This document shows, one piece after another, positions 502 to 55,721 of a stretch of DNA of 64,000 nt. This DNA is from Eledone cirrhosa. Lineage: Eukaryota. The translations under genes were made by a program, and so were the position numbers. Below the pieces are notes generated by a model that did not search any database, was not told where the DNA came from, and was given only the letters and a program-made list of their open reading frames with translations. Numbering within the stretch: the stretch's first letter is position 1; each line of letters begins with the position of its first letter. Location: contig OZ024755.1 of assembly GCA_964016885.1 (NCBI GenBank), positions 36,146,001 through 36,210,000 of the forward strand, given 5' to 3'.

Positions 502-509
502 ATCTAAGG

Positions 510-3500
510 TCATTTACCTTTGATTAACTTCCTGTACAGTACCTACTTAGGAATACAATGATCTGTCATTTACCTTTGACTAACTTCCTGTACAGTACCT
601 ACTTAGGAATACAATGATCTGTCATTTACCTTTGACTAACTTCCTGTACAGTACCTACTTAGGAATACAAATATCTGTCATTTACCTTTGACTAACTTCC
701 TGTACAGTACCTACTTAGGAATACAATGATCTGTCATTTACCTTTGACTAACTTCCTGTACAGTACCTACTTAGGAATACAAATATCTGTCATTTACCTT
801 TAACTAATTTCCTGTACAGTACCTACTTAGGAATACAAATATCTGTCATTTACCTTTAACTAATTTCCTGTACAGTACCTACTTAGGAATACAATGATCT
901 GTCATTTACCTTTGACTAACTTCCTGTACAGTACCTACTTAGAAATACAATGATCTGTCATTTACCTTTGACTAACTTCCTGTACAGTACCTACTTAGGA
1001 ATACAATGATCTGTCATTTACCTTTGACTAACTTCCTGTACAGTACCTACTTAGGAATACAATGATCTGTCATTTACCTTTGACTAACTTCCTGTACAGT
1101 ACCTACTTAGGAATACAATGATCTGTCATTTACCTTTGACTAACTTCCTGTACAGTACCTACTTAGGAATACAAATATCTGTCATTTACCTTTGACTAAC
1201 TTCCTGTACAGTACCTACTTAGGAATACAAATATCTGTCATTTACCTTTGACTAACTTGCTGTACAGTACCTACTTAGGAATACAAATATCTGTCATTTA
1301 CCTTTGACTAACTTCCTGTACAGTACCTACTTAGGAATACAATGATCTGTCATTTACCTTTGATTAACTTCCTGTACAGTACCTACTTAGGAATACAATG
1401 ATCTGTCATTTACCTTTGACTAACTTCCTGTACAGTACCTACTTAGGAATACAATGATCTGTCATTTACCTTTGATTAACTTCCTGTACAGTACCTACTT
1501 AGAAATACAATGATCTGTCATTTACCTTTGACTAACTTCCTGTACAGTACCTACTTAGGAATACAATGATCTGTCATTTACCTTTGACTAACTTCCTGTA
1601 CAGTACCTACTTAGGAATACAAATATCTGTCATTTACCTTTGATTAACTTCCTGTACAGTACCTACTTAGGAATACAATGATCTGTCATTTACCTTTGAC
1701 TAACTTCCTGTACAGTACCTACTTAGGAATACAATGATGTCATTTACCTTTGATTAACTTCCTGTACAGTACCTACTTAGGAATACAATGATCTGTCATT
1801 TACCTTTGACTAACTTCCTGTACAGTACCTACTTAGGAATACAATGATCTGTCATTTACCTTTGACTAACTTCCTGTACAGTACCTACTTAGGAATACAA
1901 TGATCTGTCATTTACCTTTGATTAACTTCCTGTACAGTACCTACTTAGGAATACAAATATCTGTCATTTACCTTTGACTAACTTCCTGTACAGTACCTAC
2001 TTAGGAATACAATGATCTGTCATTTACCTTTGATTAACTTCCTGTACAGTACCTACTTAGGAATACAATGATCTGTTCATTCACCTTTGACTAACTTCCT
2101 GTACAGTACCTACTTAGGAATACAATGATCTGTCATTTACCTTTGATTAACTTCCTGTACAGTACCTACTTAGGAATACAAATATCTGTCATTTACCTTT
2201 CACTAACTTCCTGTACAGTACCTACTTAGGAATACAAATATCTGTCATTTACCTTTGACTAACTTGCTGTACAGTACCTACTTAGGAATACAATGATGTC
2301 ATTTACCTTTGATTAACTTCCTGTACAGTACCTACTTAGGAATACAATGATGTCATTTACCTTTGATTAACTTCCTGTACAGTACCTACTTAGGAATACA
2401 ATGATGTCATTTACCTTTGATTAACTTCCTGTACAGTACCTACTTAGGAATACAAATATCTGTCATTTACCTTTGACTAACTTCCTGTACAGTACCTACT
2501 TAGGAATACAAATATCTGTCATTTACCTTTGACTAACTTCCTGTACAGTACCTACTTAGAAATACAATGATCTGTCATTTACCTTTGACTAACTTCCTGT
2601 ACAGTACCTACTTAGGAATACAATGATCTGTCATTTACCTTTGACTAACTTCCTGTACAGTACCTACTTAGGAATACAAATATCTGTCATTTACCTTTGA
2701 TTAACTTCCTGTACAGTACCTACTTAGGAATACAATGATCTGCCATTTACCTTTGACTAACTTCCTGTACAGTACCTACTTAGGAATACAATGATGTCAT
2801 TTACCTTTGATTAACTTCCTGTACAGTACCTACTTAGGAATACAATGATCTGACATTTACCTTTGACTAACTTCCTGTACAGTACCTACTTAGGAATACA
2901 ATCATCTGTCATTTACCTTTGACTAACTTCCTGTACAGTACCTACTTCGGAATACAAATATCTGTCATTTACCTTTGATTAACTTCCTGTACAGTACCTA
3001 CTTAGGAATACAATGATCTGTCATTTACCTTTGACTAACTTCCTGTACAGTACCTACTTAGGAATACAATGATCTGTCATTTACCTTTGACTAACTTCCT
3101 GTACAGTACCTACTTAGGAATACAATGATCTGTCATTTACCTTTGATTAACTTCCTGTACAGTACCTACTTAGGAATACAAATATCTGTCATTTACCTTT
3201 GACTAACTTCCTGTACAGTACCTACTTAGGAATACAATGATCTGTCATTTACCTTTGATTAACTTCCTGTACAGTACCTACTTAGGAATACAATGATCTG
3301 TTCATTCACCTTTGACTAACTTCCTGTACAGTACCTACTTAGGAATACAATGATCTGTCATTTACCTTTGATTAACTTCCTGTACAGTACCTACTTAGGA
3401 ATACAATGATCTGTCATTTACCTTTGACTAACTTGCTGTACAGTACCTACTTAGGAATACAATGATCTGTTCATTTACCTTTGACTAACTTCCTGTACAG

Positions 3501-6500
3501 TACCTACTTAGGAATACAATGATCTGTCATTTACCTTTGATTAACGTCCTGTACAGTACCTACTTAGGAATACAAATATCTGTCATTTACCTTTGACTAA
3601 CTTCCTGTACAGTACCTACTTAGGAATACAATGATCTGTCATTTACCTTTGATTAACTTCCTGTACAGTACCTACTTAGGAATACAATGATCTGTCATTT
3701 ACCTTTGATTAACTTCCTGTACAGTACCTACTTAGGAATACAATGATCTGTCATTTACCTTTGATTAACTTCCTGTACAGTACCTACTTAGGAATACAAT
3801 GATCTGTCATTTACCTTTGACTAACTTGCTGTACAGTACCTACTTAGGAATACAATGATCTGTTCATTTACCTTTGACTAACTTCCTGTACAGTACCTAC
3901 TTAGGAATACAATGATCTGTCATTTACCTTTGATTAACTTCCTGTACAGTACCTACTTAGGAATACAAATATCTGTCATTTACCTTTGACTAACTTCCTG
4001 TACAGTACCTACTTAGGAATACAATGATCTGTCATTTACCTTTGATTAACTTCCTGTACAGTACCTACTTAGGAATACAATGATCTGTCATTTACCTTTG
4101 ATTAACTTCCTGTACAGTACCTACTTAGGAATACAATGATCTGTCATTTACCTTTGATTAACTTCCTGTACAGTACCTACTTAGGAATACAATGATCTGT
4201 TCATTTACCTTTGACTAACTTCCTGTACAGTACCTACTTAGGAATACAATGATCTGTCATTTACCTTTGACTAACTTCCTGTACAGTACCTACTTAGGAA
4301 TACAAATATCTGTCATTTACCTTTGACTAACTTCCTGTACAGTACCTACTTAGGAAGACAAATATCTGTCAATTACCTTTGACTAACTTCCTGTACAGTA
4401 CCTACTTAGGAATACAATGATGTCATTTACCTTTGACTAACTTCCTGTACAGTACCTACTTAGGAATACAATGATCTGTCATTTACCTTTGATTAACTTC
4501 CTGTACAGTACCTACTTAGGAATACAATGATCTGTTCATTCACCTTTGACTAACTTCCTGTACAGTACCTACTTAGGAATACAATGATCTGTCATTTACC
4601 TTTGATTAACTTCCTGTACAGTACCTACTTAGGAATACAATGATCTGTCATTTACCTTTGACTAACTTGCTGTACAGTACCTACTTAGGAATACAATGAT
4701 CTGTTCATTTACCTTTGACTAACTTCCTGTACAGTACCTACTTAGGAATACAATGATCTGTCATTTACCTTTGATTAACGTCCTGTACAGTACCTACTTA
4801 GGAATACAAATATCTGTCATTTACCTTTGACTAACTTCCTGTACAGTACCTACTTAGGAATACAATGATCTGTCATTTACCTTTGATTAACTTCCTGTAC
4901 AGTACCTACTTAGGAATACAATGATCTGTCATTTACCTTTGATTAACTTCCTGTACAGTACCTACTTAGGAATACAATGATCTGTCATTTACCTTTGATT
5001 AACTTCCTGTACAGTACCTACTTAGGAATACAATGATCTGTCATTTACCTTTGACTAACTTGCTGTACAGTACCTACTTAGGAATACAATGATCTGTTCA
5101 TTTACCTTTGACTAACTTCCTGTACAGTACCTACTTAGGAATACAATGATCTGTCATTTACCTTTGATTAACTTCCTGTACAGTACCTACTTAGGAATAC
5201 AAATATCTGTCATTTACCTTTGACTAACTTCCTGTACAGTACCTACTTAGGAATACAATGATCTGTCATTTACCTTTGATTAACTTCCTGTACAGTACCT
5301 ACTTAGGAATACAATGATCTGTCATTTACCTTTGATTAACTTCCTGTACAGTACCTACTTAGGAATACAATGATCTGTCATTTACCTTTGATTAACTTCC
5401 TGTACAGTACCTACTTAGGAATACAATGATCTGTTCATTTACCTTTGACTAACTTCCTGTACAGTACCTACTTAGGAATACAATGATCTGTCATTTACCT
5501 TTGACTAACTTCCTGTACAGTACCTACTTAGGAATACAAATATCTGTCATTTACCTTTGACTAACTTCCTGTACAGTACCTACTTAGGAAGACAAATATC
5601 TGTCAATTACCTTTGACTAACTTCCTGTACAGTACCTACTTAGGAATACAATGATGTCATTTACCTTTGACTAACTTCCTGTACAGTACCTACTTAGGAA
5701 TACAATGATCTGTCATTTACCTTTGATTAACTTCCTGTACAGTACCTACTTAGGAATACAATGATCTGTCATTTACCTTTTACTAACTTCCTGTACAGTA
5801 CCTACTTAGGAATACAATGATCTGTCATTTACCTTTGAGTAACTTCCTGTACAGTACCTACTTAGGAATACAATGATCTGTCATTTACCTTTGATTAACT
5901 TCCTGTACAGTACCTACTTAGGAATACAATGATCTGTTCATTCACCTTTGACTAACTTCCTGTACAGTACCTACTTAGGAATACAATGATCTGTCATTTA
6001 CCTTTGATTAACTTCCTGTACAGTACCTACTTAGGAATACAATGATCTGTCATTTACCTTTGACTAACTTGCTGTACAGTACCTACTTAGGAATACAATG
6101 ATCTGTTCATTTACCTTTGACTAACTTCCTGTACAGTACCTACTTAGGAATACAATGATCTGTCATTTACCTTTGATTAACTTCCTGTACAGTACCTACT
6201 TAGGAATACAATGATCTGTCATTTACCTTTGATTAACTTCCTGTACAGTACCTACTTAGGAATACAATGATCTGTTCATTTACCTTTGACTAACTTCCTG
6301 TACAGTACCTACTTAGGAATACAATGATCTGTCATTTACCTTTGATTAACTTCCTGTACAGTACCTACTTAGGAATACAATGATCTGTCATTTACCTTTG
6401 ACTAACTTCCTGTACAGTACCTACTTAGGAATACAAATATCTGTCATTTACCTTTGATTAACTTCCTGTACAGTACCTACTTAGGAATACAATGATCTGT

Positions 6501-6559
6501 CATTTACCTTTGACTAACTTCCTGTACAGTACCTACTTAGGAATACAATGATCTGTCAT
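510..6559. repeat. 56-bp tandem satellite (about 108 copies) derived from RTE LINE coding sequence
   Basis: Unit atctgtcatttacctttgactaacttcctgtacagtacctacttaggaatacaatg with period 56 (561 to 617). Its reverse complement encodes MTDHCIPK*VLYRKLVKGK. Confidence 0.97.
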
Positions 6560-6735
6560 TCTTATAAAAGGGCCACTCAAGCACAATCTATATTGAATTA
6601 TGAGAGATTCAATACTTTCAAAATGACTTCATTCCGGCTCTTCAACATTACTCATATGAGATTGCCAACTGATATTGAGTATTCGGCGAGGATACTTTTG
6701 ATGAAAGTGATCAAGTATTTTTATATTTCACATGC
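6548..6735 (-). mobile_element. RTE-clade LINE ORF2 remnant running into the satellite
   Basis: The minus strand reads IKILDHFHQKYPRRILNISWQSHMSNVEE.*SHFESIESLIIQYRLCLSGPFIRM, which parallels the 17263-17652 RTE translation (LERFHQQSL...IESMIFRHRLRWSGHMIWM). Confidence 0.8.
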
Positions 6736-27963: not shown

Positions 27964-29511
27964 TTAACCCCTTAGCATTTAAACTGACCATATCCGGCCA
28001 GAATTCTCTCACCACCAGCTGTAACCAGCCACACATACCAACATTAAGGTATTGTTCTCAAAATAAATAACATCAAAATCTCATAGCTTTGATATTATGT
28101 GACATAATTATGTGAGGTAAAGCCTTTACTGTGAAAATACAATAGTATATATAATGTAAATGTTATGTGAGATATTATGTGAGGTAAAGCCTTTACTGTG
28201 AAAATACAATAGTATATATAGAGTAATGTAAATGTTATGTGAGATATTATGTGAGGTAAAGCCTTTACTGTGAAAATACAATAGTATATATAGAGTAATG
28301 TAAATGTTATGTGAGATATTATGTGAGGTAAAACCTTTACTGTGAAAATACAATAGTATATATAGAGTAATGTAAATGTTATGTGAGATATTATGTGAGG
28401 TAAAGCCTTTACTGTGAAAATACAATAGTATATATAGAGTAATGTGAGATATTATGTGAGGTAAAGCCTTTACTGTGAAAATACAATAGTATATATAATG
28501 TAAATGTTATGTGAGATATTATGTGAGGTAAAGCCTTTACTGTGAAAATACAATAGTATATATAGAGTAATGTAAATGTTATGTGAGATATTATGTGAGG
28601 TAAAGCCTTTACTGTGAAAATACAATAGTATATATAGAGTAATGTAAATGTTATGTGAGATATTATGTGAGGTAAAACCTTTACTGTGAAAATACAATAG
28701 TATATATAGAGTAATGTAAATGTTATGTGAGATATTATGTGAGGTAAAGCCTTTACTGTGAAAATACAATAGTATATATAGAGTAATGTGAGATATTATG
28801 TGAGGTAAAGCCTTTACTGTGAAAATACAATAGTATATATAATGTAAATGTTATGTGAGATATTATGTGAGGTAAAGCCTTTACTGTGAAAATACAATAG
28901 TATATATAGAGTAATGTAAATGTTATGTGAGATATTATGTGAGGTAAAGCCTTTACTGTGAAAATACAATAGTATATATAGAGTAATGTAAATGTTATGT
29001 GAGATATTATGTGAGGTAAAACCTTTACTGTGAAAATACAATAGTATATATAGAGTAATGTAAATGTTATGTGAGATATTATGTGAGGTAAAGCCTTTAC
29101 TGTGAAAATACTATAGTATATATATTGAGTAATGTAAATGTTATGTGAGATATTATGTGTGGTAAAGCCTTTACTGTGAAAATACAATAGTAAATATAGA
29201 ATAATGTAAATGTTATGTGAGATAATTGTGAAGTAAAGCCTTTACTGTGAAAATACAATAGTAAATATAGAGTAATGTAAATGTTATGTGAGATATTATG
29301 TGTGGTAAAGCCTTTACTGTGACAATACAATAGTATATATAGAGTAATGTAAATGTTATGAGAGATATTATGTGAGGTAAAGCCTTTACTGTGAAAATAC
29401 AATAGTATATATAGAGTAATGTAAATGGTATGTGAGATATTATGTGTGGTAAAGCCTTTACTGTGAAAATACAATAGTATATATAGAGTAATGTAAATGG
29501 TAAAGGGTTAA
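27964..29511 (+). mobile_element. piggyBac-like MITE expanded by an internal 72-bp tandem array
   Basis: TTAA-ccccttagcattta ... taaatggtaaaggg-TTAA. About 20 copies of ttatgtgagatattatgtgaggtaaagcctttactgtgaaaatacaatagtatatatagagtaatgtaaatg, with a 344-bp higher-order period. Confidence 0.9.
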
Positions 29512-36108: not shown

Positions 36109-37744
36109 TACTAAATATACTGAACTTTATCTCTTGTCACTGTTGCAACTTCCATTCCTTACTAAATATACTGAACTTTATCCCTTGTCACTGTTGCAAC
36201 TTCCATTCCTTACTAAATATACTGAACTTTATCCCTTGTCACTGTTGCAACTTCCATTCCTTACTAAATATACTGAACTTTATCTCTTGCCATTGTTGCA
36301 ACTTCCATTCCTTACTAAATATACTGAACTTTATCCCTTGTCACTGTTGCAACTTCCATTCCTTACTAAATATACTGAACTTTATCTCTTGCCATTGTTG
36401 CAACTTCCATTCCTTACTAAATATACTGAACTTTATCCCTTGTCACTGTTGCAACTTCCATTCCTTACTAAATATACTGAACTTTATCTCTTGTCACCGT
36501 TGCAACTTCCATTCCTTACTAAATATACTGAACTTTATCTCTTGTCACTGTTGCTACTTCCATTCCTTACTAAATATACTGAACTTTATCTCTTGTCACT
36601 GTTGCAACTTCCATTCCTTACTAAATATACTGAACTTTATCCCTTGTCACTGTTGCAACTTCCATTCCTTACTAAATATACTGAACTTTATCTCTTGTCA
36701 CCGTTGCAACTTCCATTCCTTACTAAATATACTGAACTTTATCTCTTGTCACTGTTGCTACTTCCATTCCTTACTAAATATACTGAACTTTATCTCTTGC
36801 CACTGTTGTTACTTCCATTCCTTACTAAATATAATGAACTTTATCCCTTGTCACTGTTGCAACTTCCATTCCTTACTAAATATACTGAACTTTATCTCTT
36901 GTCACTGTTGCAACTTCCATTCCTTACTAAATATACTGAACTTTATCCCTTGTCACTGTTGCAACTTCCATTCCTTACTAAATATACTGAACTTTATCCC
37001 TTGTCACTGTTGCAACTTCCATTCCTTACTAAATATACTGAACTTTATCTCTTGTCACTGTTGCAACTTCCATTCCTTACTAAATATACTGAACTTTATC
37101 TCTTGTCACTGTTGCAACTTCCATTCCTTACTAAATATACTGAACTTTATCCCTTGTCACTGTTGCAACTTCCATTCCTTACTAAATATACTGAACTTTA
37201 TCCCTTGTCACTGTTACAACTTCCATTCCTTACTAAATATACTGAACTTTATCTCTTGTCACTGTTGCAACTTCCATTCCTTACTAAATATACTGAACTT
37301 TATCTCTTGTCACTGTTGCAACTTCCATTCCTTACTAAATATACTGAACTTTATCCCTTGTCACTGTTGCAACTTCCATTCCTTACTAAATATACTGAAC
37401 TTTATCCCTTGTCACTGTTGCAACTTCCATTCCTTACTAAATATACTGAACTTTATCTCTTGTCACTGTTGCAACTTCCATTCCTTACTAAATATACTGA
37501 ACTTTATCCCTTGCCACTGTTGCAACTTCCATTCCTTACTAAATATACTGAACTTTATCTCTTGTCACTGTTGTTACTTCCATTCCTTACTAAATATACT
37601 GAACTTTATCTCTTGTCACTGTTGTTACTTCCATTCCTTACTAAATATACTGAACTTTATCTCTTGTCACTGCTGCAACTTCCATTCCTTACTAAATATA
37701 CTGAACTTTATCTCTTGTCACTGTTGCTACTTCCATTCCTTTAC
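36109..37744. repeat. 51-bp minisatellite (about 32 copies)
   Basis: Unit actaaatatactgaactttatcycttgtcactgttgcaacttccattcctt. Confidence 0.97.
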
Positions 37745-38086
37745 ATTTATTGCTATATAACATTACAATTAAAACATGTCATCATGTAGCCTATCTATAA
37801 TACAAAACAGGATCATTTGTCACAAGCAACAAGCAGAAGCTGGCTTATGTTCTGTTGTTGGCTCATGAGTTAACAATTATTAACTCAGCAAAGTAGCTTT
37901 AATCCTCGCCATTAATTGTATCAAGGTATCAAACAATACAAAGAGTTTTATTTAGATATCAAATATTTTAATAACAAATGATTCATACAAACTGAATCAT
38001 GGAACCAAATATAACTCGATTACTTACTGGAATTAAACCTGCATTAACTATACTAAAAAATGCCAAACTACTATTATTTCTAGTGA

Positions 38087-38205
38087 AGGCGCATGGCTTA
38101 ATAGTTAGAGAGTTGGATTCGCAATTGTGAGGTTTTGTGAGTTCAATTCTCGGACTGGGTGATGTGTTGTCTTCTTGAGCAGGACACTTTATTTCATGTT
38201 GCTCT
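38087..38205 (+). mobile_element. CORE-type SINE 5' part
   Basis: aggcgcatggcttaatagttaga..gagttcaattc..ttgagcaggacactttatttca. Confidence 0.78.
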
Positions 38206-38420
38206 TTCTGCCAGGTGTTGCGACCGGTAGATAGTATCAGCAATAGAAAGACCAGCGGAACCCCCTTTAGGAAACCCAGCCCTAAACCACCCTTCAGTGG
38301 AGATATGACAAACAGGTTTCCTTCAACAGCACCAATACACAAGAAGATATTGATGTGCTACCTCCTCTCTATACATGAGTAACAGAGTAGCTCATGATTT
38401 CTCATGATGTCTCCATGTGC

Positions 38421-39190
38421 ATAATGCTACATGTCACAAGCTGATTTCTCACGATGTCTGTATATATAATGCTACATGTCACAAGCTGATTTCTCACGAC
38501 GTCTGTATATATAATGCTATATGTCACAGGCTGATTTCTCACGATGTCTGTATATATAATGCTACATGTCACAGGCTGATTTCTCACGACGTCTGTATAT
38601 ATAATGCTACATGTTACAAGCTGATTTCTCACGATGTCTGTATATATAATGCTACATGTCACAAGCTGATTTCTCACGATGTCTGTATATATAATGCTAC
38701 ATGTCACAAGCTGATTTCTCACGATGTCTGTATATATAATGCTACATGTCACAAGCTGATTTCTCACGATGTCTGTATATATAATGCTACATGTCACAAG
38801 CTGATTTCTCACGATGTCTGTATATATAATGCTACATGTCACAAGCTGATTTCTCACGATGTCTGTATATATAATGCTACATGTCACAAGCTGATTTCTC
38901 ACGACGTCTGTATATATAATGCTACATGTCACAAGCTGATTTCTCACGATGTTTGTATATATAATGCTACATGTCACAGGCTGATTTCTCACGACGTCTG
39001 TATATATAATGCTACATGTCACAAGCTGATTTCTCACGATGTCTGTATATATAATGCTACATGTCACAAGCTGATTTCTCACGATGTCTGTATATATAAT
39101 GCTACATGTTACAAGCTGATTTCTCATGTCTTCATATGTATAATGCTACATGTTACGTTTGTTGATTTCTCGTGGTGCCTTCATATATAT
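38421..39190. repeat. 45-bp minisatellite (about 17 copies)
   Basis: Unit ataatgctacatgtcacaagctgatttctcacgatgtctgtatat. Confidence 0.95.
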
Positions 39191-39370
39191 AATTGTTTCT
39201 ACTTTTGGCACAAGGCCACCAATTCCCCCAGTGCATTACTGGTATTTTATTTTATCGACCCCCGTAAGGATGAAAGGCAAAGTTAACCTCGGCGGGATTT
39301 GAACTCAGATCATAAAGGGCCGTAACTCTATGCTGGAAAGCATGGTGTCCAACCCTCTACCGATACTGCT
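39191..39370 (-). mobile_element. Deu/Nin-like SINE
   Basis: Family consensus. Confidence 0.82.
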
Positions 39371-39406
39371 AACAGTAACTAATAATTTCTCAGAGTCTTC
39401 ATATAT

Positions 39407-39448
<42 letters not shown>

Positions 39449-39518
39449 AATGCTACATGTTACAGCAATGACTTCTGATAGTGCCTTCATATGTATATGG
39501 CTACATGTTGCAGTAACT

Positions 39519-42500
39519 CATTATATACACCCAAAACCATCAGTTCCCATCATATACACCCAAAACCATCAGTTCCCATTTTATACACCCAAAACTATCA
39601 GTTCCCATTATATACACCCAAAACCATCAGTTCCCATTATATACACCCAAAACTATCAGTTCCCATTATATACACCCAAAACTATCAGTTCCCATTATAT
39701 ACACCCAAAACCATCAGTTCCCATTATATACACCCAAAACTATCAGTTCCCATTATATACACCCAAAACTATCAGTTCCCATTATATACACCCAAAACCA
39801 TCAGTTCCCATCATATACACCCAAAACCATCAGTTCCCATTATATACACCCAAAACTATCAGTTCCCATTATATACACCCAAAACCATCAGTTCCCATCA
39901 TATACACCCAAAACTATCAGTTCTCATCATATACACCCAAAACTATCAGTTCCCATTATATACACCCAAAACTATCAGTTCCCATTATATACACCCAAAA
40001 CTATCAGTTCCCATTATATACACCCAAAACTATCAGTTCCCATTATATACACCCAAAACTATCAGTTCCCATTATATACACCCAAAACTATCAGTTCTCA
40101 TCATATACACCCAAAACTATCAGTTCCCATTATATACACCCAAAACTATCAGTTCTCATCATATACACCCAAAACTATCAGTTCTCATCATATACACCCA
40201 AAACTATCAGTTCCCATCATATACACCCAAAACTATCAGTTCCCATTATATACACCCAAAACTATCAGTTCCCATTATATACACCCAAAACCATCAGTTC
40301 CCATTATATACACCCAAAACCATCAGTTCTCATCATATACACCCAAAACTATCAGTTCCCATTATATACACCCAAAACTATCAGTTCCCATTATATACAC
40401 CCAAAACTATCAGTTCCCATTATATACACCCAAAACCATCAGTTCTCATCATATACACCCAAAACTATCAGTTCCCATTATATACACCCAAAACCATCAG
40501 TTCTCATCATATACACCCAAAACTATCAGTTCCCATTATATACACCCAAAACTATCAGTTCCCATTATATACACCCAAAACCATCAGTTCCCATTATATA
40601 CACCCAAAACCATCAGTTCTCATCATATACACCCAAAACTATCAGTTCTCATTATATACACCCAAAACTATCAGTTCTCATTATATACACCCAAAACTAT
40701 CAGTTCCCATTATATACACCCAAAACTATCAGTTCCCATTATATACACCCAAAACCATCAGTTCCCATTATATACACCCAAAACTATCAGTTCCCATTAT
40801 ATACACCCAAAACCATCAGTTCCCATTATATACACCCAAAACTATCAGTTCTCATTATATACACCCAAAACTATCAGTTCCCATTATATACACCCAAAAC
40901 TATCAGTTCCCATTATATACACCCAAAACTATCAGTTCCCATTATATACACCCAAAACTATCAGTTCCCATTATATACACCCAAAACCATCAGTTCCCAT
41001 TATATACACCCAAAACCATCAGTTCCCATTATATACACACAAAACCATCAGTTCCCATTATATACACCCAAAACCATCAGTTCCCATTATATACACCCAA
41101 AACTATCAGTTCCCATTATATACACCCAAAACTATCAGTTCCCATTATATACACCCAAAACTATCAGTTCTCATTATATACACCCAAAACTATCAGTTCC
41201 CATTATATACACCCAAGACTATCAGTTCCCATTATATACACCCAAAACTATCAGTTCCCATTATATACACTCAAAACCATCAGTTCTCATCATATACACC
41301 CAAAACTATCAGTTCCCATTATATACACCCAAAACTATCAGTTCTCATTATATACACCCAAAACTATCAGTTCTCATTATATACACCCAAAACTATCAGT
41401 TCCCATTATATACACCCAAAACTATCAGTTCCCATTATATACACCCAAAACTATCAGTTCTCATTATATACACCCAAAACTATCAGTTCCCATTATATAC
41501 ACCCAAAACTATCAGTTCTCATTATATACACCCAAGACTATCAGTTCCCATTATATACACCCAAAACTATCAGTTCTCATTATATACACCCAAAACTATC
41601 AGTTCCCATTATATACACCCAAAACTATCAGTTCTCATTATATACACCCAAAACTATCAGTTCCCATTATATACACCCAAAACTATCAGTTCTCATTATA
41701 TACACCCAAAACTATCAGTTCTCATTATATACACCCAAAACTATCAGTTCCCATTATATACACCCAAAACTATCAGTTCTCATTATATACACCCAAGACT
41801 ATCAGTTCCCATTATATACACCCAAAACTATCAGTTCTCATTATATACACCCAAAACTATCAGTTCTCATTATATACACCCAAAACTATCAGTTCCCATT
41901 AGATACACCCAAAACTATCAGTTCTCATTATATACACCCAAAACTATCAGTTCTCATTATATACACCCAAAACTATCAGTTCCCATTATATACACCCAAA
42001 ACTATCAGTTCTCATTATATACACCCAAAACTATCAGTTCCCATTATATACACCCAAGACTATCAGTTCCCATTATATACACACAAAACCATCAGTTCTC
42101 ATTATATACACCCAAAACTATCAGTTCCCATTATATACACCCAAAACTATCAGTTCCCATTATATACACCCAAAACCATCAGTTCCCATTATATACACCC
42201 AAGACTATCAGTTCTCATTATATACACCCAAAACTATCAGTTCCCATTATATACACCCAACACTATCAGTTCCCATTATATACACCCAAAACTATCAGTT
42301 CCCATTATATACACCCAAGACTATCAGTTCCCATTATATACACCCAAAACCATCAGTTCCCATTATATACACCCAAAACTATCAGTTCCCATTATATACA
42401 CCCAAAACCATCAGTTCCCATTATATACACCCAAAACTATCAGTTCCCATTATATACACCCAAAACCATCAGTTCCCATTATATACACCCAACACTATCA

Positions 42501-42696
42501 GTTCCCATTATATACACCCAAAACTATCAGTTCCCATTATATACACCCAAGACTATCAGTTCCCATTATATACACCCAAAACTATCAGTTCCCATTATAT
42601 ACACCCAAGACTATCAGTTCCCATTATATACACCCAAAACCATCAGTTCCCATTATATACACCCAAAACTATCAGTTCCCATTATATACACCCAAA
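39519..42696. repeat. 29-bp minisatellite (about 110 copies)
   Basis: Unit cattatatacacccaaaactatcagttcc; one more degenerate unit follows the SINE at about 42888-42912. Confidence 0.97.
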
Positions 42697-42887
42697 GGAC
42701 GGTGGATTGGCAGTATTGGTAGAGGGTCGGACGCCATGCTTTGCAGCATAGAGTTATGGCCCTTTACATTCTGAGTTCAAATCCCATTGAGGTTAACTTT
42801 GCCTGTCATCGCTATGGGGGTCGATAAAATAAAGTACCAGTAATGCACTGGGTAATTGCTGGCCGTGTACCAAAAGCAGAAACAATT
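42697..42887 (+). mobile_element. Deu/Nin-like SINE inserted at the end of the 29-bp array
   Basis: Family consensus. Confidence 0.85.
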
Positions 42888-43069
42888 CTATACACCCAAA
42901 TCCATCAGTTCTGATTTTATAAACACAAATATTATAGACTCGCAACTGTTTGCTTTCTAAATTCAATTCACATGTTGCTTAGTGTCTTGTCCCTTGGTTA
43001 TAATTAACCATTAGATAGACAACTTCTCTGCATTACTAGCAATTCAGTTAGTACCGTATATTCTCACTG

Positions 43070-44371
43070 ATTCAGTGTGGAAATACCAAAACAGACAAAG
43101 ATTTGGTGGTGGACATGCAAAAGTCTCTCTTGTAAAATTGGGGTATTTAAAGGATGGGGATGTTGTGTATGACTGCGGCATCAAACCACAGACTACGCAG
43201 CACCTCCTGATATGCCCCCTGCTAGAACACCCCTGCACAGCATTGGACTTGGCAGAGTTTAATGAGATAGGACAGTAATGTGTTCAGCTGTGGTGGAACC
43301 ACATCTGGCCAACCTTTGTAACTGACACTCTTGTGGACACAAGGACAGTAATGTGTTCAGCTGTGGTGGAACCACATCTGGCCAACCTTTGTAACTGACA
43401 CTCTTGTGGACACAAGGACAGCAATGTGTTCAGCTGTGGCAGAACCACATCTGGCCAACCTTTGTAACTGACACTCTTGTGGACACAAGGACAGCAATGT
43501 GTTCAGCTGTGGTAGAACCACATCTAGCCAACCTTTGTAACTGACACTCTTGTGGACACAAGAACAGCAATGTGTTCAGCTGTGGTAGAACCACATCTAG
43601 CCAAGCTTTGTAACTGACACTCTTGTGGACACAAGGACAGCAATGTGTTCAGCTGTGGTAGAACCACATCTAGCCAAGCTTTGTAACTGACACTCTTGTG
43701 GACACAAGGACAGCAATGTGTTCAGCTGTGGTAGAACCACATCTAGCCAAGCTTTGTAACTGACACTCTTGTGGACACAAGGACAGCAATGTGTTCAGCT
43801 GTGGTAGAACCACATCTAGCCAAGCTCTGTAACTGACACTCTTGTGGACACAAGGACAACAATGTGTTCAGTTGTGACAGAACCACATCTAGCCAAGCTT
43901 TGTAACTGACACTCTTGTTGACACAAGGACAGCAATGTGTTCAGCTGTGGTAGAACCACATCTAGCCAAGCTCTGTAACTGACACTCTTGTGGACACAAG
44001 GACAACAATGTGTTCAGTTGTGACAGAACCACATCTAGCCAAGCTTTGTAACTGACACTCTTGTTGACACAAGAACAGCAATGTGTTCAGCTGTGGTAGA
44101 ACCACATCTAGCCAAGCTCTGTAACTGACACTCTTGTGGACACAAGGACAACAATGTGTTCAGTTGTGACAGAACCACATCTAGCCAAGCTTTGTAACTG
44201 ACACTCTTGTTGACACAAGGACAACAATGTGTTCAGATGTGGTAGAACCACATCTAGCCAAGCTCTGTAACTGACACTCTTGTGGACACAAGGACAGCAA
44301 TGTGTTCAGCTGTGGTAGAACCACATCTAGCCAAGCTCTGTAACTGACACTCTTGTGAACACGAGAAGAAG
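43070..44371 (+). mobile_element. I-group (Ingi/Vingi-like) LINE 3' end with its last 73 bp amplified about 15 times
   Basis: VWKYQNRQRFGGG..KLGY..DCGIKPQTTQHLLICP (decayed CCHC knuckle), then period-73 repeats from 43269, ending in acacgagaagaag. Confidence 0.75.
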
Positions 44372-49501: not shown

Positions 49502-49637
49502 CAGGGGCTGCCGGCGAAGAAACAACACCACACCTTCAGCCGGCACCCTTTTTTTTTGGGGGGGGGGGGGGGGGGTATTAGATGTTTTCCAAATTTAAAG
49601 GTTCCTTAGGAACTTTCAATGTTTATTTTAGGTTTTG

Positions 49638-49697
49638 CCCTCTGAAGAGCTCAGGCTGTCTTAACTGACAGTCCTCGGTGAAATATATATAACAGAG
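49638..49697 (+). ncRNA. degenerate Penelope-type minimal hammerhead motif
   Basis: ccct CTGAAGA gctcagg-ctgtc ttaact gacag-tcctcggt GAAA tatatat aac agag. The core and stem II are good, while stem I and the cleavage triplet are imperfect. Followed by aataaa and (TA)n. Confidence 0.4.
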
Positions 49698-49801
49698 TTT
49701 TAAATAAACCTGAATCAACTGAATATGGCCTCCAATCTTATATATATATATATATATATATCTCCAGGGAGTGTAACACGGAGTTACTGTAGTATTATTA
49801 T

Positions 49802-49841
<40 letters not shown>

Positions 49842-49910
49842 TATGAAGAGAGAAGAAACATTTAGATATAATTAGTAATAAAATGTATCATACCTAAACT
49901 GTTCCTAAAT

Positions 49911-49998
49911 TCCTCGACTACGTAGTTTCGTGGCATAAACAAAAACAATATATCAAAGATATAGAGTCCTTGCGAGGTCTGCCAACTTATCAAGAGGA
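49911..49998 (-). ncRNA. type I hammerhead ribozyme, first of 8 minus-strand copies (others start at 50502, 51093, 51684, 52275, 52866, 53457, 54038)
   Basis: Reverse complement of the motif at 54584-54671. Confidence 0.78.
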
Positions 49999-52900
49999 TA
50001 CCTCATTTTACTAGTCTCAAGAACGCGTCTACACGACGTGAGAAAGAATCCCAAAAGGCGGAGGGGGAGATAGTCACGCGATATAACGGTCGAGAAACAG
50101 AGCTAAGCCTCTTATAACCACGAAGAAAATACCACGGAGGCGGAGGGGGTATTCATATCGAGGCCGTAGAAGAGGTAGTGAAGAAGGCGAGAAGTATGAG
50201 TAATGGAAGCTTTCCAGTTGTCCCCACACTTCAAAGATTGCTCGACCAGAGGGAGTTATTAATATATTTAAAAACACACAGATACATGCGGACACACACA
50301 TATATACATGAATGCATCCGCACCCAACTGTGAGTTAAGGGTGCCAACTTCACCGATGTTGCTCAATGAATGACTGGGACAGACCAATTCAGTTTGAACC
50401 AGACTGAACCAGTATCAGAGTTAAAAATACATTATGAAGAGAGAAGAAACATTTAGATATAATTAGTAATAAAATGTATCATACCTAAACTGTTCCTAAA
50501 TTCCTCGACTACGTAGTTTCGTGGCATAAACAAAAACAATATATCAAAGATATAGAGTCCTTGCGAGGTCTGCCAACTTATCAAGAGGATACCTCATTTT
50601 ACTAGTCTCAAGAACGCGTCTACACGACGTGAGAAAGAATCCCAAAAGGCGGAGGGGGAGATAGTCACGCGATATAACGGTCGAGAAACAGAGCTAAGCC
50701 TCTTATAACCACGAAGAAAATACCACGGAGGCGGAGGGGGTATTCATATCGAGGCCGTAGAAGAGGTAGTGAAGAAGGCGAGAAGTATGAGTAATGGAAG
50801 CTTTCCAGTTGTCCCCACACTTCAAAGATTGCTCGACCAGAGGGAGTTATTAATATATTTAAAAACACACAGATACATGCGGACACACACATATATACAT
50901 GAATGCATCCGCACCCAACTGTGAGTTAAGGGTGCCAACTTCACCGATGTTGCTCAATGAATGACTGGGACAGACCAATTCAGTTTGAACCAGACTGAAC
51001 CAGTATCAGAGTTAAAAATACATTATGAAGAGAGAAGAAACATTTAGATATAATTAGTAATAAAATGTATCATACCTAAACTGTTCCTAAATTCCTCGAC
51101 TACGTAGTTTCGTGGCATAAACAAAAACAATATATCAAAGATATAGAGTCCTTGCGAGGTCTGCCAACTTATCAAGAGGATACCTCATTTTACTAGTCTC
51201 AAGAACGCGTCTACACGACGTGAGAAAGAATCCCAAAAGGCGGAGGGGGAGATAGTCACGCGATATAACGGTCGAGAAACAGAGCTAAGCCTCTTATAAC
51301 CACGAAGAAAATACCACGGAGGCGGAGGGGGTATTCATATCGAGGCCGTAGAAGAGGTAGTGAAGAAGGCGAGAAGTATGAGTAATGGAAGCTTTCCAGT
51401 TGTCCCCACACTTCAAAGATTGCTCGACCAGAGGGAGTTATTAATATATTTAAAAACACACAGATACATGCGGACACACACATATATACATGAATGCATC
51501 CGCACCCAACTGTGAGTTAAGGGTGCCAACTTCACCGATGTTGCTCAATGAATGACTGGGACAGACCAATTCAGTTTGAACCAGACTGAACCAGTATCAG
51601 AGTTAAAAATACATTATGAAGAGAGAAGAAACATTTAGATATAATTAGTAATAAAATGTATCATACCTAAACTGTTCCTAAATTCCTCGACTACGTAGTT
51701 TCGTGGCATAAACAAAAACAATATATCAAAGATATAGAGTCCTTGCGAGGTCTGCCAACTTATCAAGAGGATACCTCATTTTACTAGTCTCAAGAACGCG
51801 TCTACACGACGTGAGAAAGAATCCCAAAAGGCGGAGGGGGAGATAGTCACGCGATATAACGGTCGAGAAACAGAGCTAAGCCTCTTATAACCACGAAGAA
51901 AATACCACGGAGGCGGAGGGGGTATTCATATCGAGGCCGTAGAAGAGGTAGTGAAGAAGGCGAGAAGTATGAGTAATGGAAGCTTTCCAGTTGTCCCCAC
52001 ACTTCAAAGATTGCTCGACCAGAGGGAGTTATTAATATATTTAAAAACACACAGATACATGCGGACACACACATATATACATGAATGCATCCGCACCCAA
52101 CTGTGAGTTAAGGGTGCCAACTTCACCGATGTTGCTCAATGAATGACTGGGACAGACCAATTCAGTTTGAACCAGACTGAACCAGTATCAGAGTTAAAAA
52201 TACATTATGAAGAGAGAAGAAACATTTAGATATAATTAGTAATAAAATGTATCATACCTAAACTGTTCCTAAATTCCTCGACTACGTAGTTTCGTGGCAT
52301 AAACAAAAACAATATATCAAAGATATAGAGTCCTTGCGAGGTCTGCCAACTTATCAAGAGGATACCTCATTTTACTAGTCTCAAGAACGCGTCTACACGA
52401 CGTGAGAAAGAATCCCAAAAGGCGGAGGGGGAGATAGTCACGCGATATAACGGTCGAGAAACAGAGCTAAGCCTCTTATAACCACGAAGAAAATACCACG
52501 GAGGCGGAGGGGGTATTCATATCGAGGCCGTAGAAGAGGTAGTGAAGAAGGCGAGAAGTATGAGTAATGGAAGCTTTCCAGTTGTCCCCACACTTCAAAG
52601 ATTGCTCGACCAGAGGGAGTTATTAATATATTTAAAAACACACAGATACATGCGGACACACACATATATACATGAATGCATCCGCACCCAACTGTGAGTT
52701 AAGGGTGCCAACTTCACCGATGTTGCTCAATGAATGACTGGGACAGACCAATTCAGTTTGAACCAGACTGAACCAGTATCAGAGTTAAAAATACATTATG
52801 AAGAGAGAAGAAACATTTAGATATAATTAGTAATAAAATGTATCATACCTAAACTGTTCCTAAATTCCTCGACTACGTAGTTTCGTGGCATAAACAAAAA

Positions 52901-54583
52901 CAATATATCAAAGATATAGAGTCCTTGCGAGGTCTGCCAACTTATCAAGAGGATACCTCATTTTACTAGTCTCAAGAACGCGTCTACACGACGTGAGAAA
53001 GAATCCCAAAAGGCGGAGGGGGAGATAGTCACGCGATATAACGGTCGAGAAACAGAGCTAAGCCTCTTATAACCACGAAGAAAATACCACGGAGGCGGAG
53101 GGGGTATTCATATCGAGGCCGTAGAAGAGGTAGTGAAGAAGGCGAGAAGTATGAGTAATGGAAGCTTTCCAGTTGTCCCCACACTTCAAAGATTGCTCGA
53201 CCAGAGGGAGTTATTAATATATTTAAAAACACACAGATACATGCGGACACACACATATATACATGAATGCATCCGCACCCAACTGTGAGTTAAGGGTGCC
53301 AACTTCACCGATGTTGCTCAATGAATGACTGGGACAGACCAATTCAGTTTGAACCAGACTGAACCAGTATCAGAGTTAAAAATACATTATGAAGAGAGAA
53401 GAAACATTTAGATATAATTAGTAATAAAATGTATCATACCTAAACTGTTCCTAAATTCCTCGACTACGTAGTTTCGTGGCATAAACAAAAACAATATATC
53501 AAAGATATAGAGTCCTTGCGAGGTCTGCCAACTTATCAAGAGGATACCTCATTTTACTAGTCTCAAGAACGCGTCTACACGACGTGAGAAAGAATCCCAA
53601 AAGGCGGAGGGGGAGATAGTCACGCGATATAACGGTCGAGAAACAGAGCTAAGCCTCTTATAACCACGAAGAAAATACCACGGAGGCGGAGGGGGTATTC
53701 ATATCGAGGCCGTAGAAGAGGTAGTGAAGAAGGCGAGAAGTATGAGTAATGGAAGCTTTCCAGTTGTCCCCACACTTCAAAGATTGCTCGACCAGAGGGA
53801 GTTATTAATATATTTAAAAACACACAGATACATGCGGACACACACATATATACATGAATGCATCCGCACCCAACTGTGAGTTAAGGGTGCCAACTTCACC
53901 GATGTTGCTCAATGAATGACTGGGACAGACCAATTCAGTTTGAACCAGTATCAGAGTTAAAAATACATTATGAAGAGAGAAGAAACATTTAGATATAATT
54001 AGTAATAAAATGTATCATACCTAAACTGTTCCTAAATTCCTCGACTACGTAGTTTCGTGGCATAAACAAAAACAATATATCAAAGATATAGAGTCCTTGC
54101 GAGGTCTGCCAACTTATCAAGAGGATACCTCATTTTACTAGTCTCAAGAACGCGTCTACACGACGTGAGAAAGAATCCCAAAAGGCGGAGGGGGAGATAG
54201 TCACGCGATATAACGGTCGAGAAACAGAGCTAAGCCTCTTATAACCACGAAGAAAATACCACGGATGCATTCATGTATATATGTGTGTGTCCGCATGTAT
54301 CTGTGTGTTTTTAAATATATTAATAACTCCCTCTGGTCGAGCAATCTTTGAAGTGTGGGGACAACTGGAAAGCTTCCATTACTCATACTTCTCGCCTTCT
54401 TCACTACCTCTTCTACGGCCTCGATATGAATACCCCCTCCGCCTCCGTGGTATTTTCTTCGTGGTTATAAGAGGCTTAGCTCTGTTTCTCGACCGTTATA
54501 TCGCGTGACTATCTCCCCCTCCGCCTTTTGGGATTCTTTCTCACGTCGTGTAGACGCGTTCTTGAGACTAGTAAAATGAGGTA

Positions 54584-54671
54584 TCCTCTTGATAAGTTGG
54601 CAGACCTCGCAAGGACTCTATATCTTTGATATATTGTTTTTGTTTATGCCACGAAACTACGTAGTCGAGGA
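54584..54671 (+). ncRNA. type I hammerhead ribozyme (U3-A8 variant); predicted cleavage after C54666
   Basis: tcctc TTGATAA gttggca [44 nt] tgccac GAAAC tacgta GTC gagga: 5-bp stem I, stem II and palindromic stem III actacgtagt. Confidence 0.8.
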
Positions 54672-55174
54672 ATTTAGGAACAGTTTAGGTATGATACATT
54701 TTATTACTAATTATATCTAAATGTTTCTTCTCTCTTCATAATGTATTTTTAACTCTGATACTGGTTCAGTCTGGTTCAAACTGAATTGGTCTGTCCCAGT
54801 CATTCATTGAGCAACATCGGTGAAGTTGGCACCCTTAACTCACAGTTGGGTGCGGATGCATTCATGTATATATGTGTGTGTCCGCATGTATCTGTGTGTT
54901 TTTAAATATATTAATAACTCCCTCTGGTCGAGCAATCTTTGAAGTGTGGGGACAACTGGAAAGCTTCCATTACTCATACTTCTCGCCTTCTTCACTACCT
55001 CTTCTACGGCCTCGATATGAATACCCCCTCCGCCTCCGTGGTATTTTCTTCGTGGTTATAAGAGGCTTAGCTCTGTTTCTCGACCGTTATATCGCGTGAC
55101 TATCTCCCCCTCCGCCTTTTGGGATTCTTTCTCACGTCGTGTAGACGCGTTCTTGAGACTAGTAAAATGAGGTA

Positions 55175-55262
55175 TCCTCTTGATAAGTTGGCAGACCTCG
55201 CAAGGACTCTATATCTTTGATATATTGTTTTTGTTTATGCCACGAAACTACGTAGTCGAGGA
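55175..55262 (+). ncRNA. type I hammerhead ribozyme, second plus-strand copy
   Basis: Identical to 54584-54671, shifted by 591 bp. Confidence 0.8.
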
Positions 55263-55493
55263 ATTTAGGAACAGTTTAGGTATGATACATTTTATTACTA
55301 ATTATATCTAAATGTTTCTTCTCTCTTCATAATGTATTTTTAACTCTGATACTGGTTCAGTCTGGTTCAAACTGAATTGGTCTGTCCCAGTCATTCATTG
55401 AGCAACATCGGTGAAGTTGGCACCCTTAACTCACAGTTGGGTGCGGATGCATTCATGTATATATGTGTGTGTCCGCATGTATCTGTGTGTTTT

Positions 55494-55534
<41 letters not shown>

Positions 55535-55568
55535 ATAATAATACTACTACAGTAACTCCGTGTTACAC

Positions 55569-55638
55569 TTGTGTTCTCATCAGATAAAATAAGGTAACAT
55601 GATATCATGTTACCTTATTTCATCTGATGAGAACACAA
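55569..55638. repeat. 70-bp near-perfect loopless palindrome
   Basis: ttgtgttctcatcagataaaataaggtaacatgat|atcatgttaccttatttcatctgatgagaacacaa, with one mismatch. Confidence 0.92.
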
Positions 55639-55721
55639 TTTTTGTCCCAGGCTGATTTTTTATTCAAAATGCACATAATAAAATATATGGAACTCTTTTA
55701 ACCATCTTTTAATTTCTTCTT

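Follow-up and report, generated by a model that had tools for sequence, protein, structure and literature searches.

Metazoan non-LTR retrozymes, as portrayed in the parts of PMC7229834 and 10.64898/2026.07.22.740005 drawn on here, are non-coding tandem repeats in which each unit has one type I hammerhead, their GC content is under 50%, and they occur as thousands of dispersed short arrays in genomes where Penelope-like elements (PLEs) are also present. The array of Eledone cirrhosa described here shares all of these features. Its 591-nt unit is longer than the 170-400 nt given in the relevant sections of PMC7229834 but falls inside the range of 51-972 found in those of 10.64898/2026.07.22.740005, and it differs from metazoan retrozymes in its long stem II and U3-A8 core. 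The retrozyme passages drawn on here contain no head-to-head multimers with two fixed ends, and the word "inverted" occurs 0 times in the portion of PMC7229834 consulted. The step from a circle to a cDNA of more than unit length was tentatively proposed in 2014.

EN+ PLEs (PMC8557442, PMC3846280) resemble the Eledone arrays in other respects: they form partial tandems with an inverted 5'-truncated copy, carry a tail at one end only, insert at (TA)n targets and have a hammerhead near their ends. Unlike EN+ PLEs, the Eledone unit has no ORF, its tail is 165 nt rather than 30-40 nt, an arm may hold up to 7.5 laps, and the unit is short enough for variants to be tested lap by lap. A further likeness is to the Poseidon PLE of Anolis, PAc, studied in vitro (PMC11167929, in part), in which reverse transcription starts internally at two sites downstream of the hammerhead, both DNA strands are cut and extended, and the tail is the stretch between the sites. 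Subtraction of the published coordinates in that part of PMC11167929 places the PAc start 85-92 nt after the cut, compared with 80 nt in the Eledone unit. However, the PAc start sites are adjacent, unlike those of the Eledone unit at +80 and +245, and PAc starts at RNA non-homologous to the target, whereas at both Eledone sites the last letters are TA-like and run into the tract. In the same part of PMC11167929 a circular template is not reported for PAc, and insertion by the anole PLE in vitro did not require hammerhead cleavage.

Covariation of U3-A8 is already known in PLE hammerheads. In twin priming of L1, two primers on one RNA lead to an inversion joined by microhomology; the two L1 products derive from different stretches of a single linear RNA, whereas the Eledone arms copy the same unit, often repeatedly. 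The papers drawn on here treat as open both the origin of the tandem and inverted copies of PLEs and the route by which hammerhead circles return to animal genomes. The Eledone retrozyme family offers thousands of young insertions, laps that can be compared individually, defined reverse transcriptase (RT) start sites and a co-resident candidate PLE whose ribozyme core is the same. Together these allow the circle model to be tested both by counting and with purified components.

Results

Organization of the array and its unit

The window analysed is a stretch of 64,000 nucleotides of Eledone cirrhosa DNA, to which all positions refer. Between 49836 and 55502 a single 591-nt unit is tandemly repeated in two oppositely oriented arms (Table 1), and the geometry proposed in the earlier note, 7.5 and 2.1 copies meeting head-to-head at CGGA (54262-54265), is borne out. 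The CGGA overlap is exact over 4 nt, and an extended version matches at 6 of 7 nt. All full-length copies, six in the left arm and the one in the right, match the reference unit at 100%, and the seventh copy of the left arm lacks 10 nt near 53949. Merging of the outer ends with (TA)n by microhomology also holds, the left arm overlapping the tract at 49805-49838 by ATA and the right arm that at 55497-55531 by ATATAT. The coordinates 49770 and 55569, which come from the earlier note, take in an extra inverted flank repeat beyond the (TA)n tracts; the repeat fragment includes a 22-mer with 41 exact genome copies, and its right-flank copy is probably an inverted target duplication from insertion or repair.

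Table 1. Features of the head-to-head array (positions in the window)
Feature	Position	Strand	Description
Left flank	49770..49804	+	End fragment of another repeat family, then (TAT)n; inverted copy in right flank
(TA)n target tract, left end	49805..49838		
Left arm	49836..54265	-	7.5 tandem copies of 591-nt unit; ribozyme sense on minus strand
Left arm ends			Outer, unit position 80 (site 1); inner, about 366-369
Predicted hammerheads, left arm (8)		-	Cuts 49916, 50507, 51098, 51689, 52280, 52871, 53462, 54043
Head-to-head junction	54262..54265		4-nt microhomology CGGA common to both arms
Right arm	54262..55502	+	2.1 tandem copies of 591-nt unit
Right arm ends			Outer, unit position 245 (site 2); inner, 187
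Predicted type I hammerhead, right-arm copy 1	54585..54670	+	Pattern scan; cut 54666/54667
Predicted hammerhead, right-arm copy 2	55176..55261	+	Pattern scan; cut 55257/55258
Equivalent of PLE "tail"	55338..55502	+	165 nt, site 1 to site 2; at right outer end only (definition from PMC8557442 and part of PMC11167929)
(TA)n target tract, right end	55497..55531		
Right flank	55532..55569	-	Inverted copy of left-flank fragment

A pattern scan finds one hammerhead motif per tandem unit, on a single strand. The left arm carries its 8 motifs on the minus strand and the right arm its 2 on the plus strand, and therefore the ribozyme-sense strands point outward; the outer ends lie 80 and 245 nt downstream of a predicted cut, and therefore neither is a cleavage site. 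Both points had been claimed previously and both stand. The predicted hammerhead has a U3-A8 core, a 4-bp stem I, a long stem II and a palindromic stem III, and its fold scores -7.1 kcal/mol, whereas the optimal structure for the same 94 nt reaches -23.1 kcal/mol. Nothing in the unit reached the Rfam gathering threshold, and a search for a parent hammerhead with a short stem II gave 4 hits, of which 3 fall in copies of the unit that have suffered deletion or diverged and 1 is unrelated.

The layout is that of a plain, non-coding tandem with no apparent LTR, PBS or PPT architecture, and there are 7,458 exact copies of the core genome-wide. A coding or endless-ORF role for the unit (591 = 3 x 197) was rejected, with stops present in all six frames. 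There is no ORF with RT and GIY-YIG, and hence the unit is not an autonomous PLE. By these sequence features the unit is a non-LTR retrozyme, for which self-cleavage and circular RNA are predicted from the motif.

Two fixed outer ends, used one each

Are the outer ends circularly permuted, as the earlier note expected? They are not. Two fixed sites are used throughout the genome, site 1 at 80 nt and site 2 at 245 nt after the predicted cut, with 2,644 exact junctions of site 1 and 1,122 of site 2 with (TA)n, against 0 for controls, and the independent deep run X3 has the identical two loose ends. Of 119 mapped loci 78 are head-to-head, and 74 of these pair one site-1 end with one site-2 end; the remaining four have one odd end, and none has two alike. 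The rule holds in 54/58 loci when 20 that were picked as pairs are left out, and in all 23 of 23 outward pairs across the initial 102.6 Mb of C1. What stands of the expectation for other insertions is therefore (TA)n and microhomology, and not permutation, a result close to the fixed ends that the earlier note had itself named as speaking against its reading.

In the 39 best-matching loci the outer ends run into (TA)n, bar one degraded end, and in 26/35 single-arm loci the inner side also meets (TA)n. Flank repeats are direct in 5/99 loci (one abutting, L036) and inverted in 5/64 head-to-head loci, and (TA)n masks any target site duplication. Conservation of the site-1 tract was discarded as circular, because many loci had been chosen by exact match there. 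At the level of sequence, the two fixed ends and one-sided tail are the "tail" signature of PLEs. Such ends leave room for a circular template, because a PLE RT can start internally at two set sites (PMC11167929, in part). The one-each rule was itself rejected as proof of a single template: it holds in the autonomous PLE described below and in L217, a locus with discordant arms, and therefore reflects the enzyme.

Arm lengths and inner joins

At least one unit is present in 96/163 arms and at least two in 39/163, and both arms exceed one unit in 18/64 head-to-head loci. The predicted cut site is crossed 274 times with 0 indels within 5 nt. The inner ends are scattered over the unit; positions 1-3 hold 1/163 (0.8 expected), and positions 576-591, just beyond the cut, hold 12/163 (4.4 expected). 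Joins have 0-5 nt of microhomology or a short insert, with long near-palindromic overlaps of 8-29 nt in 6/64. At least 2 nt are shared by 21/41 flush junctions, compared with 15% by chance, which supports the proposal of two (TA)n-primed cDNAs joined at their inner ends. Because fixed ends replace permuted ones, the case for a circle rests on scar-free crossings and on the pattern of variants, not on endpoints.

Variants across copies

Variants scored at positions covered 3 or more times per locus, in 61 loci, are shared by every copy of an insertion (99), confined to one copy (67) or present in an intermediate number (4). This favours amplification of a single unit over unequal crossing-over, as had been suggested, and so do 25 private all-copy substitutions, 14 of them spanning both arms, which come from 18 of the initial 99 loci. 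Haplotypes of the two arms are concordant in 43/46 loci, compared with 9% (maximum 20%) after shuffling. There are 77 distinct all-copy alleles in 107 loci, and 2/73 all-copy alleles lie within the hammerhead (6.9% expected, p 0.11), which gives no significant sign of selection on the motif. Single-copy alleles recur in a second locus in 3/63 cases, none in the same arm and lap, and young arrays, including the one at 49836-55502, have no single-copy substitutions. The arms of L217 come from two subfamilies and differ at 11/12 markers, and in one locus 2 of 6 copies share a variant. L227 proved to be two separate insertions and was split, which removed six intermediate variants; L092 contains two duplicated insertions, of which only the first was counted. 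These patterns indicate that each insertion was very likely copied from a single monomer.

On the sense strand, 17 of 34 all-copy alleles are A>G and 4 are T>C (p 9e-5), or 13 and 4 without L106; A>G accounts for 4/67 single-copy variants. In 20 held-out loci the rare variants lack this excess (2 A>G and 4 T>C of 7), so that, on a held-out set of this size, the all-copy bias is only weakly replicated. Polarising by the oldest copies reverses 4 lineage A>G calls and, in the opposite direction, 2 G>A calls. A per-lap RT error bias (T>C and G>A in single copies) was discarded as non-significant once composition was corrected.

A candidate Penelope-like partner

The Eledone cirrhosa genome contains a young PLE with RT, CxxxxCxxC and GIY-YIG motifs, whose hammerhead has the U3-A8 core of the retrozyme unit. 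Its ends lie at cut+82 and cut+150, its outward pairs are mixed in 29/31 cases, and 40/40 scored copies are 98-100% identical. The candidate family appears Neptune-like, with a putative 4,979-nt cut-to-cut unit. The retrozyme unit shares with one PLE family the U3-A8 core, a similar stem I, a pyrimidine tract before site 1 and a TTTCTAA-TATATA-like site 2. Across 46 GIY-YIG loci there is no extended nucleotide homology to the unit, except for retrozyme copies inserted in one, and therefore the partner is one candidate among many families; 150 of 10,597 GIY-YIG candidates were scored. The one-sided tail (74/78), the (TA)n ends and a co-resident PLE with the same core and two-site rule support a PLE as mobiliser, as the earlier note had supposed.

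Discussion

The reading we favour, and consider reasonably likely, is that a non-LTR retrozyme is moved in trans by a (TA)n-targeting PLE, probably via a circular monomer lapped by the RT. Priming of the PLE type at two sites can be held with considerable confidence from the sequence; that the template monomer is a closed circle is a fairly probable interpretation of the variants and crossings. Tandem copies would be transcribed, cut by the hammerhead to 591-nt monomers and ligated to circles, as the motif and other retrozymes suggest (PMC7229834, in part). A PLE endonuclease would then cut both (TA)n strands, as another PLE did in vitro on AT-rich DNA (PMC11167929, in part). The two DNA 3' ends would be extended by the presumed PLE enzyme, one each from the fixed RNA sites +80 and +245 that correspond to the observed ends. 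Almost always, both extensions would have one and the same monomer as template, maybe for several laps with strand displacement around the putative circle. The cDNAs would stop variably and join through the observed 0-5 nt microhomologies or short inserts, to give outward arms. The template would be the ribozyme-sense strand, and the suggestion is that its A-to-I editing may be a main source of heritable change. For one generation, a homogeneous young array read as a linear multimer would also yield all-copy variants.

A wider version of this cycle is plausible, at somewhat less than even odds. A PLE dimer would prime the two strands of the target on a single circular RNA carrying A-to-I edits and lap it repeatedly, so that single edits would become fixed in all copies in both arms. 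Run on the 4,979-nt unit, this cycle would explain why autonomous PLEs have pseudo-LTRs, tails and inverted copies, and the Neptune-like candidate would be the enzyme. If true, circular RNA, edits included, is written into the germ line as multimers, and the genome is a fossil record of twin-primed rolling-circle reverse transcription.

Could the same two sites have been primed on a linear multimer, either a source-array transcript that was never cut or an RNA-to-RNA copy of the circle? The palindrome in stem III points to cleavage that is slow and depends on dimers, axolotl has multimers of retrozyme RNA, the anole PLE in vitro used mostly uncut RNA (PMC11167929, in part), and the absence of single-copy substitutions from young arrays such as that at 49836-55502 would fit. 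However, on a linear multimer copy number could only drop with each round, the many distinct all-copy alleles need a one-unit bottleneck followed by amplification, and single-copy alleles seldom recur and never in the same arm and lap; in the RNA-to-RNA form a circle is still needed upstream. We regard a linear multimer as unlikely. Repeated end-to-end jumps of the RT on one self-cleaved linear monomer would explain variants present in all copies or in one just as well as a circle, and end-to-end jumping is known for the R2 RT. Yet the 274 crossings of the cut are free of indels, and inner ends are not piled at the cut but cluster just past it, which makes such jumping quite improbable.

Growth by other means is less probable still, to a degree that we consider slight. 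The head-to-head form could arise by self-priming on antisense RNA, as proposed for rotifer PLEs (PMC3846280), or the arrays could grow as DNA through gene conversion and unequal crossing-over, and the near-palindromic junction overlaps, the discordant arms of L217 and the variant in 2 of 6 copies would suit these routes. Both arms nevertheless begin at fixed sites beside (TA)n, the majority of joins are not fold-backs, intermediate variants are rare (4/170), and the mutation bias is specific to the sense strand. The probability that misassembly or fold-back of long reads produced the inversion or the copy number seen here is negligible: no piece in 4 sequencing runs (one deep, X3) spans the central junction, but a fold-back would be symmetric, whereas these two arms have different fixed outer ends and are unlike at the join, and 74/78 loci are likewise mixed-ended with distinct junctions.

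Parts of the unit were detected in 20 sequencing runs under 17 organism labels, none of them listed as RNA, a distribution that is not taken as evidence of horizontal transfer. X1 and X9 are low-depth traces, and in the independent deep run X3 allele shares are about those of genome G000.

Results

Two inverted arms of the 591-nt unit meet at CGGA, with a (TA)n tract at each outer end, and the geometry described in the earlier note thus stands. A single 10-nt deletion is the sole difference among the full unit copies. The unit has stops in all six reading frames and folds better than its own shuffles (z -5.7). A pattern scan predicts a single type I hammerhead in each unit. In both arms it lies on the strand that points outward, and its core is U3-A8 and its stem III palindromic. 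An Rfam search reported nothing. U3-A8 is already known as a covariation in the hammerheads of Penelope-like elements (PLEs), according to the available text of PMC4209133. Unit positions are counted from the first base 3' of the predicted cut.

Features of the window and of two further array loci (window positions unless a genome contig is named)
Feature	Position	Description
Left arm	49836-54265	7.5 copies of the 591-nt unit
Right arm	54262-55502	2.1 copies, inverted relative to the left arm
Hammerhead-like stretch, by eye	49630-49710	CTGAAGA...GAAA with hairpin; failed the hammerhead pattern scan
Inverted repeats of flank sequence	49763-49804 and 55532-55569
Half of another abundant repeat	55569-55720	right flank
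Minisatellite arrays, long and many	509-6560, 28095-29499, 36109-44362	periods 29-80 nt, at most 110 copies; unrelated to the 591-nt unit
Match of sequencing run X1	54205-54852	621-nt contig (591 + 30 overlap), depth 7.8
Array L188	C4:341451230-341454282	stem II loop lacks 26 nt in both matched copies
Array L138	C2:222536212-222538747	five copies with a 590-nt period

The 3' half of the hammerhead has 7,458 exact copies across the 3.0-Gb genome. We mapped 119 loci, comprising the 39 best hits (window locus included), 20 chosen by an end at position 80 (site 1), 20 as pairs, 16 and 20 by an end at position 245 (site 2), and four further hits; their identity to the window's unit ranges from about 86 to 100%. 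Array length variants recur copy by copy in L188, L138 and L125, the last with a 3-nt deletion in all copies.

Where do the arms end? Circularly permuted endpoints had been proposed, and this was not borne out: outer ends fall at position 80 or 245. Exact patterns of an end plus (TA)n gave 2,644 matches for position 80, 1,122 for position 245 and none for controls. One arm ends at each site in 74 of 78 head-to-head loci. A single end is odd in the other four, and no locus has the same site at both ends; without the 20 loci chosen as pairs, the rule holds in 54/58. Another 41 mapped loci are single-arm. Both match lists are complete for the first 102.6 Mb of contig C1, and each of the 23 outward-facing pairs there is mixed. 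The deep run X3, which is independent and possibly from the source sample, contains loose (TA) ends at both fixed places and the 591-nt return joint; the centre of the window locus was spanned by none of the runs examined. The contig from run X1 closes the whole unit on itself, which is equally compatible with a tandem array and with a circle. Inner ends are variable, with clusters at positions 171-182, 336-372 and 576-591. Among 56 resolved junctions, 41 are flush and 15 bear an insert, and 21 of the 41 flush junctions share at least two bases (chance, 15%). In 5/64 head-to-head loci (the window locus, L065, L092, L097 and L114), flank sequence outside the two (TA)n tracts forms an inverted repeat with one copy per side, perhaps through fold-back at the self-complementary (TA)n.

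Variants were compared copy by copy at positions covered at least three times inside one locus. Across 61 loci, 99 substitutions are in all copies, 67 in one copy and four in between. Of the substitutions present in every copy, 25 from the first 99 loci are private, that is, unique within a sample of about 100 loci out of thousands, and 14 of these extend across both arms. L106 carries nine all-copy changes (7-8 of 7-8 copies), of which five are private. In 43 of 46 informative loci the two arms match at every lineage marker, compared with 9% when arms are shuffled. Two loci differ at one marker and L217 differs at 11/12; the arms of L217 come from different subfamilies, yet retain one site-1 and one site-2 end, and it is a two-template event or a later conversion.

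Discussion

From the sequence evidence, the most likely explanation of these insertions is two-strand, two-site PLE priming on a single template. Once a (TA)n tract is cut, a PLE enzyme would prime each of its two strands on a single monomeric sense RNA, entered at two fixed sites; reverse transcription on each strand would lap the template, and microhomology would join both cDNAs. A closed circle is the simplest form for this template and probably the right one. Unequal crossing-over or inherited mixed multimers should give intermediate variant counts, the class with only four members. A linear multimer as template is rather unlikely. In 274 passages of an arm across the cut site there is no indel nearby, nor do inner ends accumulate at the cut; a cleaved linear monomer, copied by run-off or by end-to-end jumping, is therefore disfavoured. 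Jumping of the R2 type leaves scars. A linear monomer re-read without scars is less likely still. Antisense self-priming or growth at the DNA level is improbable, and an artefact very improbable.

A strand bias gives support to a sense-strand RNA template. On the sense strand, the 34 all-copy alleles include 17 A>G and 4 T>C changes (p 9e-5 once composition is allowed for), or 13 and 4 without L106, whereas only 4/67 single-copy variants are A>G. ADAR editing is expected to show paired surroundings and few sites after G; surroundings of the A>G sites are more paired (0.69 vs 0.57, p 0.01), and 2/26 are preceded by G (p 0.07). The bias is a lead to editing, although it might equally stem from the RT's own bias or from selection that favours pairing. 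Rare variants in 20 held-out loci (n=7; 2 A>G, 4 T>C) count against it, and polarising with old copies reverses some calls in both directions.

The window element is a retrozyme, a known kind of non-autonomous element carried by circRNA (PMC7229834, as far as its text is available). In the accessible parts of earlier papers, more-than-unit cDNA from circles was already proposed (PMC4209133, PMC7761336), no motif indicated a helper (PMC7761336), and retrozymes were given a PLE origin, with no analysis of insertion ends (10.64898/2026.07.22.740005). Searches at the level of listings and abstract starts turned up no study of retrozyme insertions that deals with fixed two-site ends, with variant patterns per copy or with editing. 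Three things seem new: the two-site, one-per-arm rule for multimeric retrozyme insertions, the copy-by-copy evidence pointing to a single template molecule, and a candidate helper resident in the same genome.

The insertion geometry itself is of the known PLE type. PLE insertions have been described with partial tandems, a 5'-truncated copy in inverted orientation, a one-sided tail and (TA)n as target (PMC8557442, PMC3846280). In purified form, a PLE from anole cuts both strands and extends them, with internal RT start at two tail-bounding sites (PMC11167929). The genome holds 10,597 GIY-YIG candidates, of which 150 were scored; two long frames tested match RVT_1 and GIY-YIG. In one family (L172, L173, L177, L180, L185), RT, CxxxxCxxC and GIY-YIG motifs are visible by eye; by a motif named in the accessible text of PMC8557442, it would be Neptune-like. 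Its hammerhead has the U3-A8 pair and a stem III that is palindromic, and its ends lie at cut+82 (2,964 in the genome) and cut+150 (6,748). Its outward pairs are mixed in 29/31, the other two not being clean single insertions. Identity across 2.4 kb is 98-100% in 40/40 scored copies, the 775-codon RT frame is intact in 12 of 20 fetched stretches, and four copies exceed the cut-to-cut unit of 4,979 nt. Its end motifs are like those of the retrozyme, whereas extended homology is absent, and it is therefore a candidate rather than a proven partner. In L172-L211, terminal repeats differ less within an insertion than the between-insertion median, except for pairs with a separate third copy in L185, as expected if one template supplied both arms. 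In three full-length copies (L202, L203, L207; 3/3), a frame of 409-410 codons begins just past site 2 and overlaps the RT frame in a different reading frame, possibly reflecting a programmed frameshift or an intron.

The abundant repeat in the window's right flank (1,931 candidates) is probably another family moved by a PLE. Its copies (L071, L072, L074, L075) have outward-facing arms, a variable centre and (TA)n flanks, with an extension of about 100 nt on one side only in three of the four viewed; in the window, its left arm is mostly absent.
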